A DNA stretch of 64,000 nucleotides. It comes from an uncultured Chloroflexia bacterium (GTDB taxonomy: Bacteria > Chloroflexota > UBA5177). The notes below the pieces were generated by a model. It was not told where the DNA came from. It ran no database searches and saw nothing but the letters and a program-made list of their open reading frames with translations. The stretch covers positions 1,758,355 to 1,822,354 of the forward strand of contig CAVTRL010000001.1 of assembly GCA_963737125.1 (NCBI GenBank), given 5' to 3'. The position numbers and the translations under genes were made by a program. Each line of letters opens with the position of its first letter. Positions within the stretch are counted from its first letter, which is position 1. Below, in pieces: positions 3,121 to 45,468 of this stretch.

Positions 3121-4230
3121 CTAGGAGCTTGCCGTCACGGGGCTGTGCTCTTCAACCAGAGCCGTGGCGCGAATAAACGCTTCCGTCATCTCGCGAGCGA
3201 GCTCGTCCTTATGCTGGACAGGCGGTGATTTCATAAAGTACCCGGACGGCCCCTCGAGGGCGCCGGATATGTTGTGGTCAAGCGCCAGCTTGTTGCAGCG
3301 TATCGCGTCGATGACGACACCGGCGGAATTTGGAGAATCCCAGACTTCGAGCTTCATCTCGACGTTCAACGGAACGTCTCCGAAGGATCGGCCTTCCATC
3401 CGAATGTACGCCCACTTTCGGTCACTGAGCCATTCCACGTAGTCACTTGGTCCAATGTGCACATTGCCCTTGCCGACGTCGTAGTCGAGCTGCGAAGTGA
3501 CGGCGTTTGTTTTGGATATCTTCTTTGACTCGAGGCGGTCGCGCTCCAGCATGTTGAGGAAGTCGGTGTTGCCGCCGACGTTGAGCTGGCTGGTGCGTTC
3601 GACCTTGACTCCACGATCCTTGAAAAGGGTGGTCAAGGCGCGGTGAACGATGGTAGCGCCCACCTGAGATTTGATGTCGTCGCCAATGATCGGCAGTCCT
3701 GCCTGCTCGAAGCGACGGCGCCAGTATTCCTCGCGGGCGATGAAGACCGGGATGCAGTTTACGAATCCACATCCGGCCCGCAGCACCTGCTCGACATACC
3801 ACTTCGTCGCTTCCTCACTGCCGACGGGCAAGTAGCTGACGACTACATCGGTCTTGGTGTCCTTGAGGATTTGAACGACATCGGCGGTCGGACCGGGTGC
3901 TTTGGTGATGATCTCCGAAAGGTACTTGCCCAATCCGTCGTGGGTCATCCCGCGCTCAACCTTGACTCCGAGGCGCGGCACGTCAGAGAACTTGTAGGTG
4001 TTGTTGTGCCCTGAAAAAACCGCTTCCGAGAGGTCTTTGCCAACCTTTTCAGCGTCAATGTCGAAGGCGCAGCTGAACTCGATGTCCCGAATGTGATAGC
4101 CGCCCAAATTGACGTGCATGAGCCCTGGAACGAAATCGTCGTCCTTGGCGTCCTTGTAGTACTGCACGCCCTGCACAAGGGATGAGGCGCAATTTCCTAC
4201 CCCGATAATTCCAACTCGAACCTTCGACAC
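3121..4230 (-). CDS. ino1: myo-inositol-1-phosphate synthase
   Basis: 369 aa; N-terminal NAD-binding [21 protein letters not shown] and overall similarity to bacterial/archaeal MIPS. Confidence 0.85.
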
Positions 4231-38891: not shown

Positions 38892-39435
38892 ATGGCACGG
38901 GTAACGACCGGTACGGGAGACGAAGGCTGGACCGATCTGCTCGGCTCGGAACGCGTGCCCAAGTACCATCCCCGTCCGGAAACGTTCGGAACGGTCGACG
39001 AGGCGACGTCCGCGCTGGGGCTAGCCCGGGCGCATCTCGAACGATGCGGCGCTCAAAGATCAGATTTACCGGCTCCAGCAGGATCTATACGTGCTGATGG
39101 CGGAGCTCGCGACGCCTGCCGAGAACTACGCCAAAGTCGACTTCAAAATTCGATCGGAACACGTGGAGCGCCTCGAAAAGGAAAGCGAAGTGCTCAAAGC
39201 GGAAGTCGAAATCGGAAAGGTATTCGTGGTGCCGGGGGCGACGGTGGCGGGAGCCGCGCTGGACGTGGCACGCACGGTGGTTCGCCGCGCTGAGCGCCAG
39301 GTGGCCCGGCTTTATCACGAAGGCGACATAACGAACGCATTCGCGCTGCGCTATCTGAACCGACTGTCGGATCTGTTATTCATCATGGCGAGGTACGAGG
39401 AAGCTACGACCAGGGAGCCGCCGGACGACAACTAG
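38892..39435 (+). CDS. PduO-type ATP:cob(I)alamin adenosyltransferase (frameshift near 39050)
   Basis: MARVTTGTGDEGWTDLLGSERVPK.. N-terminus and ..DLYVLMAELATP.. C-terminal half in two frames; stop codon TAG (39433-39435) abuts the inverted repeat. Confidence 0.7.
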
Positions 39436-39451
39436 TGGGTCACTTGTGTTG
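39432..39451. repeat. left terminal inverted repeat (with flanking C-TA)
   Basis: ctagtgggtcacttgtgttg, perfect reverse complement of 45449-45468. Confidence 0.8.
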
Positions 39452-39543
39452 GTCAAAGCCACTGGTTCGTGCTGCTCGTCGTCTCCGGGGTGACCCCTTC
39501 AAGGCGCCACGAGGGAATGGCTCTGGCCGACCCCCTTGACCCA

Positions 39544-40002
39544 CTAAGAGCGACTCGTGGTCAGCGGAAGCCCAAGCAGGAGAATAGCCCGTGCAACCAG
39601 CACCCCTGCTCCCACCGCCACGAGCGCCATGAGGCCATGCAGCACCTCCTCCAGCACCACGGGACCCGGCGAAGTATTAGTGTAAAAACTCTGAAAGCCA
39701 ATGGCGACGAGGCTGAGAAAGAGGACGACTTCACCAGCGAGAGCCAGGGCAGCATACTGTAGGGATTGAAGAGCGCCGCGGTGGTACCTCTGCGGCCGAA
39801 GGAACGCCAGCCAGATGATGCCTCGCTCGGAGGCAACGACAAGAAGACTGAGGGCCACGATGCCGACGATCACCGCCACTCCACATTGAAAAGTCCCCAG
39901 CCCGACACTAATTGGGAGGCCGCTCGGACGGTGAAGGAAGGGTGTGCTGGTGGCTATCCCAGCCAGAACCGCAAGGCCGCCAAGGACGCAGAACGTTTTC
40001 AC
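39544..40002 (-). CDS. hypothetical polytopic membrane protein (family A, copy 1)
   Basis: 152 aa, about 4 TM helices; N-terminal 60 aa clearly paralogous to ORF 42717..43436 (..LAVLAGI(A/G)(T/A)STPFL(H/Q)RP..GTFQ..). Confidence 0.5.
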   Translation of the reverse strand: MKTFCVLGGLAVLAGIATSTPFLHRPSGLPISVGLGTFQCGVAVIVGIVALSLLVVASERGIIWLAFLRPQRYHRGALQSLQYAALALAGEVVLFLSLVAIGFQSFYTNTSPGPVVLEEVLHGLMALVAVGAGVLVARAILLLGLPLTTSRS

Positions 40003-43935: not shown

Positions 43936-44063
43936 CTCGGTGCCTCGATAGCTCGACTTTATACCGGCGCAGAGGGGAAGACATCCGTAAGACCACGGAA
44001 GATCTCGTCCTCAGCCGAAGAGATGGGGAGCGGCCCCGCCAGCCGGCTGCGCTCGACTCCTGG

Positions 44064-44089
44064 CGGGTCACGTGTATTGGTCACAACCC
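44064..44089. repeat. internal degenerate copy of the left terminal repeat
   Basis: gcgggtcacgtgtattggtcacaacc vs left end gtgggtcacttgtgttggtcaaagcc: 21/26 identical, same orientation as the left end, no TA flank. Confidence 0.55.
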
Positions 44090-44094
44090 TTGTC

Positions 44095-45421
44095 TCAGGC
44101 TGCCCGTCGGCGGTGGAGTGGCCGCCGGGTATAGGCACCTGAGCCACCGAGGGCATGACGTCGCTCCCGTGCTCGCTGGCGTCGGGCCTGCCGTTTCCCA
44201 CCCCACTCGAAGGGCGTCGGCTCTCGGTTCCAGGCACGGGCTGTTGCCTCCAGCCAGTCGATGATCTCCTCGGGCGTCTTGGGATGGGCGCCGTCGAGTG
44301 CGCGCCGCTTGAGGATGCGCTGAATCGACTCGCACATATTGAGGTACGAGCCGCCCAGCGGGGTGAAGAGGGGCATGATCCCGTGGTGGAAGAGCCACAG
44401 GATGAGATCGACGGTGTAGTGCCCGGTGAGGTTATCCCAGACCAGGAGCATGCGGAGCGGTGGGAGGTCCTGAGGAAGGGTGGTGCGGATCGTCAGCCCC
44501 TCTTGCCAGCGCTGCCAGCACCGTCGGTTCTCCTCCGGCGGGAGGGCGTCCGGCTTAGGCAGGGTTGCCAGGATGGCCAGCAACTCCGCTTCGAGCCAGG
44601 GATGCAGGATGGCATTAGCACCGCTTCGCACCCCTTTCACCCGCACGTGCCCAGTGGCGGGATGGAAGAGCGTCAACTGCTTGGCCGTGCCTTCCCGGAC
44701 ATACTCATGGGGATAGCGAACCGGCTCTCCAGCCGGATGCCAGTGGGAGCCGGGATAGGGGAGCGTCCCATACGGACCCGCCTCGTCTTCTGCCCAGACC
44801 GGCGGGAGGGACTGGGTATATGCCGCCTGGATCAACTTTTTTTCGCTGCGGCATCGGGATCGACGACCGTCACGGTTCCACTTTTCCGCTTCCTGACCAC
44901 GGTCCCTGTCTCGCACCAACTCTGATCCTTGGTCCAGACAAAGCCGGCATCGTGCAAGACGCACCAGATGGTGTAGGTGCTGATCCCGGGCAGGCCATCC
45001 GGCGCGCGCGTCGCAGCGTGGTGAGTGACCACGTCGCCGTGCCATCCGTGTTCCGATCCGGTGTGCGCCGCACCTCCCGCAGAATCCGCTCTTGCTCGGT
45101 CTCGGTGTAGCGCTTCGGCTGCCCACCACCATGATGCTCGACCAGCGCGTCGATCCCGTCCCGGTTGAACCGGGTCACCAGATGGGCAACGGCATCGCCA
45201 CTCTTGCGACCGGCACGGCGTGCTGCGCTCTCGAAGCTTGCGCCATCCGCGACCGCGAGGAGTTCCTTGGCTCGCACCACCTGAGCGGCGGGATCGGTGC
45301 GCGATCGACTCACTAGTTCAAGGTGGAGGCGTTCGTTGGGCGTAAGGGGACGCAAGGGATCTTTCTGGCGAGCCGGCATGGCAGACTCCGGGGAAGGCGA
45401 GGCGGCGAATACCTGCCACAA
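44095..45421 (-). CDS. IS630/Tc1-family DDE transposase, split over three reading frames
   Basis: N-terminal HTH frame (track ORF 44870..45421), middle frame (44832..45032: ..[31 protein letters not shown]), DDE_3 frame (44095..45132: ..LVWDNLTGH.., ..[16 protein letters not shown]..); the last switch is at an A7 tract (plus-strand T7 at 44837-44843). Confidence 0.7.
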
Positions 45422-45448
45422 GCCTACTGCCGTCGATTGGCAGTCATC

Positions 45449-45468
45449 AACACAAGTGACCCACTAGA
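45449..45468. repeat. right terminal inverted repeat (with flanking TA-G)
   Basis: caacacaagtgacccactag; its CTA (45464-45466) is the minus-strand TAG stop codon of tsaD. Confidence 0.8.

Follow-up and report, generated by a model that had tools for sequence, protein, structure and literature searches.

A defective IS630-family insertion sequence and the probable use of programmed -1 recoding at an A-rich run by its clade

A transposase gene on the minus strand of the window (the whole 64-kb stretch of DNA analysed here) is distributed over three reading frames. Our analyses suggest that it belongs to a defective copy of an IS630-family insertion sequence (IS), and that the clade of this element very probably produces its full-length transposase (OrfAB) by programmed -1 recoding at an A-rich run. 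Judging from comparison with related elements, the frame switch located at a run of seven adenines (A7) is the native signal by which orfA and orfB are recoded into OrfAB and is unchanged in the window, and the other switch, between the helix-turn-helix (HTH) and linker parts, is a lesion private to the window copy.

Six-frame translation revealed three collinear minus-strand transposase segments (A, B, and C) from position 45379 to position 44095, each in a different frame, and a conceptual 428-aa fusion of these segments mapped back onto the window as three pieces with 97-100% identity in a tblastn search. Both analyses agree with the original prediction that the transposase is spread over three successive frames. 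Each switch represents a -1 change, the second one falling on the A7 run, and a 10-nt deletion is what places segment B in the -1 frame with respect to the start codon. The description of the three segments as HTH, linker, and DDE parts could be retained only in part: segment B does contain the linker but is not a linker only, since the C-terminal half of HTH_32 is included in it. In the fusion, HTH_29 (residues 36-97) and HTH_32 (residues 64-142) were both detected above the Pfam cutoffs, and the match to Pfam DDE_3 was weak (E 5e-4). A bipartite N-terminal HTH is therefore present, but in the window copy the 10-nt deletion disrupts its second HTH. When 40 fusions from the clade were aligned, residues D199, D316, and E351 (fusion numbering) proved invariant in 39-40 of them, with a D-to-E spacing of 35 residues, and orfB shares 85-86% identity with its closest relatives. 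Considering its architecture, ends, target, and catalytic motif, the element is a member of the IS630 family, with a score against NCBIfam NF033545 (IS630 transposase; E 4e-25, 88.8 bits, the sole NCBIfam match) just below the curated cutoff of 100. It resembles other members of the IS630 family (IS630/Tc1/mariner) in its length of approximately 1.4 kb, inverted repeats, TA duplication in CTAG, paired HTH motifs, DD35E motif, and sub-cutoff match to NF033545, but differs from classical IS630, which has one ORF, in having two ORFs that overlap in the -1 frame.

The extent of the element was defined by its inverted repeats and by end-to-end alignment with related elements, whose length is 1,350-1,450 bp when complete. 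Terminal inverted repeats of 25 nt, 76% complementary to each other, were found at 44060-44084 and 45443-45467. The left end of the IS reads GTGGGTCACTTGTG and is directly preceded by TA. Alignment of the right repeat and its flank with the consensus (...ATGACCAACACAAGTGACCCAC, followed by TA) identified four substitutions, including those in the second-to-last base and in the flanking TA. Duplication of TA within a CTAG target is a hallmark of IS630 elements, and CTA and TAG flank the IS in approximately 90% of the complete relatives. In the window, the flanking TA and the first G of the IS (45464) together form TAG, the stop codon of tsaD (Pfam TsaD match, E 3e-85), which lies upstream. Coordinates of all features are given in Table 1.

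Table 1. Features of the IS630-family element in the window (plus-strand coordinates of the window)
Feature	Position	Strand	Description
IS630-family insertion sequence, defective copy	44063..45464	-	1,402 bp; delimited by inverted repeats and end-to-end alignment with related elements
Left (transposase-proximal) inverted repeat	45443..45464	-	GTGGGTCACTTGTGTTGATGAC; matches the clade consensus
TA flanking the left end	45465..45466	.	Half of the target duplication (CTAG target)
Segment A / 5' part of orfA	45379 to ~45010 (listed 45011..45379)	-	ATG at 45379; HTH_29 and first half of HTH_32; start-codon frame
10-nt deletion, private	45001..45012 (45001-45010)	-	In or beside CGCGCGCGCC; DNA and protein alignment; exact junction ambiguous
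Segment B / 3' part of orfA	~45008 to 44835 (listed 44835..45000)	-	Recognition helix of the second HTH, basic RKRKSG stretch, and linker; -1 relative to the start codon
A7 run, predicted slippery and conserved -1 recoding site	44837..44843	-	Plus-strand T7; orfA frame GCG AAA AAA AGT TGA; -1 frame GAA AAA AAG TTG ATC
TGA stop of orfA	44832..44834	-	One codon past A7; within the conserved Leu-Ile codons of the -1 frame
Segment C / orfB, DDE catalytic domain	44095..44847	-	-1 frame; open; coding 44847 to 44098, stop 44097-44095
DDE catalytic codons	D 44787-44785, D 44436-44434, E 44331-44329	-	DD35E spacing
Right inverted repeat, degenerate	44063..44084	-	Repeat search and alignment with relatives
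Expected second copy of TA	44061..44062	.	TG on the plus strand (CA on the minus strand); mutated

A 110-bp MITE-like element was also observed at 39435-39544, with flanking TA at 39433-39434 and 39545-39546. Its termini (GTGGGTCA) are the same as those of the IS, it folds into a long hairpin (-49 kcal/mol), and over its first 48 nt it shares 87.5% identity with the right-end region of a related IS found in one of the metagenome or genome loci examined (L010); it appears to be a non-autonomous derivative of the same IS630 clade. Likewise, this element lies exactly on the TAG stop codon (39433-39435) of an upstream adenosyltransferase gene, the G of the stop being the first base of the element. 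CTAG occurs far less often in the window than base composition predicts (35 observed versus approximately 219 expected), and thus TAG stop codons may provide a CTAG-specific IS with some of its few possible targets in this high-GC genome. Two 8-nt matches to the end motif, at 3940 and 43055, were considered as further IS ends and rejected as chance occurrences.

The evidence for recoding is comparative and comes from the relatives of the element. In the window, the homopolymer at the linker-to-DDE switch is exactly seven bases long and the -1 change occurs there, just as originally described. A total of 94 related loci were compared in judging the A7 run. The fusion was mapped onto all 9 genome loci (from Anaerolineales, other Chloroflexota, Thermomicrobiales, Acidimicrobiales, and Armatimonadota MAGs) and 80 metagenome loci (including many soil ones) that were fetched, yielding 85 informative copies; no relative above 66% identity was found in the scan of the genome collection. 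Two overlapping ORFs with the downstream one in the -1 frame are conserved among these diverged homologues: in 75 of the 85 informative copies (43-86% identity), residues 1-181 lie in one frame and the sequence from about residue 180 onward lies in the -1 frame. The frame change in these 75 copies always takes place at a run of A5-A9, and a TGA in the 0 frame follows one or two codons later in nearly all of them, whereas a +1 change is needed in five of the remaining copies and the other five are in a single frame. The closest relatives (L010 and L011, 85-86% identity) have exactly the same GCGAAAAAAAG as the window. The most common type of site, GCG AAA AAA RNN TGA (A6 or A7, with the run starting at codon position 1), was found in 37 loci, and the other main types are xxA AAA AAA AGY TGA (A8), AAA AAA AAC TGA, and xxA AAA AGG GGC TGA. 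These run variants (A6G, A7, A8, and A5G4) differ from each other by substitutions that keep the -1 requirement and not by indels. Thirty-nine loci are intact except for the single shift at the A-run, and the further frame breaks seen in other loci fall at various unrelated positions. Outside the site, only 33% of the Lys codons are AAA in these genes, whose GC content is 66%. Comparison with intact IS630-family relatives, which the original prediction had called for, hence revealed that they carry the same -1 switch at an A-run, in favour of its first suggestion, a programmed slippery site. It had also named the restoration of a single continuous ORF by resequencing as the outcome that would speak against it; this does not apply to A7, where intact relatives are discontinuous too.

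Two classes of proteins were detected by protein search. The closest matches (76-88% identity) are essentially all DDE-only ORFs of 237-290 aa, dozens in number, as would be expected from gene callers given a split gene. The other class comprises single-ORF proteins of 430-450 aa with 52-71% identity. Because single-ORF relatives exist (50-71% identity over all searches), not every member of the wider family has a split gene. Tract lengths range from A5G4 to A9 in split members and from A8 to A10 in single-ORF members. Some length changes of the run were also observed: in L014 and L080, runs that are 2 nt shorter than those of split relatives result in a single ORF (KNLIE), and L037, L049, L084, and L086 lack one base at the run or immediately past it and would need a +1 shift. 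The A-tract is evidently mutable at the DNA level.

Based on these comparisons, we propose the following model for expression of the transposase. In intact relatives, orfA of approximately 185 codons would encode the two HTH motifs and the linker and would end at a TGA located one or two codons past a run of A5-A9, where orfB, which encodes the DD35E domain, takes over in the -1 frame. Normal decoding would yield OrfA only, a DNA-binding protein that might act as a regulator by analogy with IS1 and IS3. A minority of ribosomes might slip one base back on the Lys codons, either by P-site slippage on A_AAA or, where the phase provides A_AAA_AAA or A_AAA_AAC, by a tandem shift; alternatively, RNA polymerase might add one A, and either event would give the full transposase. 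The slip may take place at the ribosome or at RNA polymerase. In-phase A_AAA in every variant and runs as short as A5 argue for a ribosomal event. It counts against the proposal that the run starts at codon position 1 in the window and in about half of the relatives, so that an in-phase X_XXY_YYZ heptamer is absent from the window site, in which only the weaker tetramer A_AAA is in phase, as in 37 relatives; A_AAA_AAA, A_AAA_AAC, or A_AAG_GGA is in phase in approximately 19 relatives. We could not detect any consensus structure around the site using RNAalifold (68 sequences, -80 to +120; energy 0.0), per-sequence folding against shuffled sequences gave mean z-scores of -0.2 downstream and -0.5 upstream (no conserved structure), and visual inspection of the aligned upstream sequences revealed no Shine-Dalgarno (SD)-like stimulator.

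The proposed strategy is of the known orfA/orfB frameshift type, which has already been recorded for some IS630 members: decoding makes use of frameshifting in the families IS1, IS3, IS5, and IS630 (PMC5009743). As in IS1 (insA/insB, A_AAA_AAC) and the IS3 family (e.g. IS911, A_AAA_AAG), an upstream DNA-binding ORF is followed by a catalytic ORF in the -1 frame, a slippery A-run lies on Lys codons in the overlap, and the fusion is the transposase. However, the transposase belongs to an unrelated, Tc1-like DD35E family, and the phase of the run varies among members, many of which have only the A_AAA tetramer in phase. No pseudoknot, stem-loop, or SD-like stimulator was found here, in contrast to IS911 and IS3, whereas IS1 also lacks an evident stimulatory structure; since the A_AAA_AAC site of IS1 works without a known stimulator (PMC4066793), such an element is not obligatory.

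A plausible though not favoured alternative, which concerns the slip step only, is that RNA polymerase turns A7 into A8 by adding one A to some of the mRNAs, which are then translated conventionally into OrfAB. The occurrence of the run in all three codon phases (0, 1, and 2) among relatives is what a phase-independent process predicts, and both the absence of an in-phase tandem heptamer at about half of the sites and the absence of a conserved ribosomal stimulator structure are in line with it, as are the long runs kept in single-ORF relatives (A8 in L090 and A10 in L091-L093) and the difference of only one A (L090 versus L012/L019) or two (L014 and L080) between split and fused forms. IS elements are known to slip at A9 (PMC1088944). 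However, efficient slippage of bacterial RNA polymerase has been documented for nine A or T (PMC5009743, PMC1088944), whereas most sites here are A6-A7 and twelve have only A5 or A6 followed by G4; moreover, the in-phase A_AAA of every variant can support P-site slippage of the ribosome. A precedent is an IS630-family element of Roseiflexus that uses stem-loop-dependent transcriptional slippage (Penno et al. 2015, per PMC5009743). It is likewise an IS630-family element from a Chloroflexota host whose transposase extends across two frames and needs recoding, but it relies on T5C5 with an adjacent upstream hairpin (GCGGGCgcaaGCCCGC) and on deletion of one C from the RNA (a +1-type event), neither of which has a counterpart in the present clade, where an A-run requires a -1 correction (one added base) and no conserved hairpin was found. 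A broader version of polymerase slippage appears rather unlikely: the A-tract might act as a polymerase-level switch conserved throughout this Chloroflexota-centred clade, in split and single-ORF members alike, setting the OrfA:OrfAB ratio at unusually short runs without an RNA stimulator, and gain or loss of A at the DNA level might toggle between a split state of low activity and a fused state of high activity.

It is very unlikely that OrfA and OrfB function as two separate polypeptides without fusion, with OrfB translated from an internal start such as the TTG or CTG of Leu-Ile-Glu, which is where gene callers begin it. The free-standing 246-aa ORFs predicted by gene callers in dozens of relatives would fit such an arrangement, but amino acid conservation is unbroken over the junction (DPDAxAKK to LIEAAY), the same region is part of one polypeptide in single-ORF relatives, and no SD-like sequence was seen by eye before the supposed OrfB start in the junction sequences. 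Besides, IS630/Tc1 transposases require their DNA-binding and catalytic domains in one chain. Least probable of all is the suggestion, also raised originally, that the A7 switch is an accident (a homopolymer sequencing error or an inactivating 1-nt loss from an ancestral A8) in an element whose intact form is a single ORF: single-ORF relatives with A8 (KKN LIE) or A10 are known, run-length changes giving +1 or fused frames in a few relatives indicate that the run is mutable, and another gene within the window is frameshifted, but the same -1 arrangement at the same codon in most independent copies from many assemblies and phyla, the exact A7 in the closest relatives, and the expectation that random indels would produce +1 about as often as -1 changes, with no compensation by neighbouring substitutions, already contradict it, and a private mutation or sequencing error at A7 is for practical purposes excluded.

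In contrast to programmed recoding at A7, the HTH-to-linker switch has no counterpart among the relatives, as a frame change at this site was found in no related locus. DNA alignment revealed a 10-nt gap in the window copy against all seven aligned relatives, between CTGC(A/G)ACG and CCGGATGGC, with an ambiguous junction because of a CG repeat; where relatives read LQRALRRAPDGLP, the window reads LRRA and then, past the loss of frame, RPDGLP. In the protein alignment, WSLTTLQRALRRAPDGLP of the relatives is replaced by WSLTTLRRA and then RPDGLP. The deletion, possibly a product of slippage between short CG repeats, eliminates part of the second HTH and hits nearly invariant Leu and Arg columns. 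As a consequence, the start-codon frame ends at a TGA (44872-44870) 27 nt ahead of A7, and no single slip can therefore restore the transposase. Across 140 nearly invariant columns, the window copy deviates at only four, two of which are due to the deletion and the other two being R to Q and E to Q changes; inactivation thus looks recent, which also speaks against an old, heavily eroded pseudogene. Considering the deletion together with the degenerate right repeat and flanking TA, the window copy is judged to be defective and dead, and it is probably poorly mobilisable in trans as well. The original prediction that the element may be non-autonomous is consequently supported in its conclusion but not in its reason, since the A7 switch is normal for the clade and the copy is disabled by the HTH-to-linker switch, for which the prediction offered no explanation. 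It had also raised the possibility of intact copies acting in trans; blastn and tblastn searches with the element identified no second transposase copy within the 64-kb window, where the 110-bp MITE-like derivative was the only related sequence.

Another broken gene was noticed in the window. A PduO-type cobalamin adenosyltransferase gene at 38892-39435 on the plus strand is split over two frames with a change near 39033-39040, and joining the two parts conceptually gives a match to Pfam Cob_adeno_trans that covers positions 1-170 of 171 (E 8e-51). No homopolymer is present at this break, which resembles a loss of 2 nt near GCGCATCTCG; it represents either a real pseudogene or an assembly indel. 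Because a second gene of the window is also frameshifted, an assembly indel is conceivable as the origin of the 10-nt gap, although a gap of this size would be unusual as a sequencing error. Either the genome contains several true pseudogenes or some assembly indel errors are present.

Several relatives occur close to other copies. At positions 1-46 of L010, the IS lies head to tail with another copy, its left end directly adjoining the right end of that copy, with one CTAG shared (...CAAGTGACCCACTAGTGGGTCACTTG...), and many short metagenome loci are flanked by ACTA and TAGT, that is, by AC...GT just outside the TA. Possible explanations for these flanks and for the L010 junction are tandem copies, circular IS junctions, a repeat wrapped around by the assembler, or a preference for the palindrome ACTAGT. 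Two diverged members of the clade (43-67% identity), adjacent or inverted, were found in each of seven loci (L001, L038, L047, L053, L068, L069, and L073), most of the copies with an A-run -1 junction of their own; this points to clustering or nesting of these IS elements.

With regard to annotation, the break at the A-run in members of this clade should be recorded as programmed recoding, and not as a pseudogene or a homopolymer error; at present, the DDE half appears in dozens of database entries as a hypothetical protein of 246 aa standing on its own. The window copy itself would be a fossil, which could not transpose on its own and would be a poor substrate in trans. Its clade, however, provides a set of natural slippery-site variants (A6G, A7, A8, and A5G4, in three phases) with no obvious stimulator, by which ribosomal and transcriptional slippage in high-GC bacteria could be told apart.
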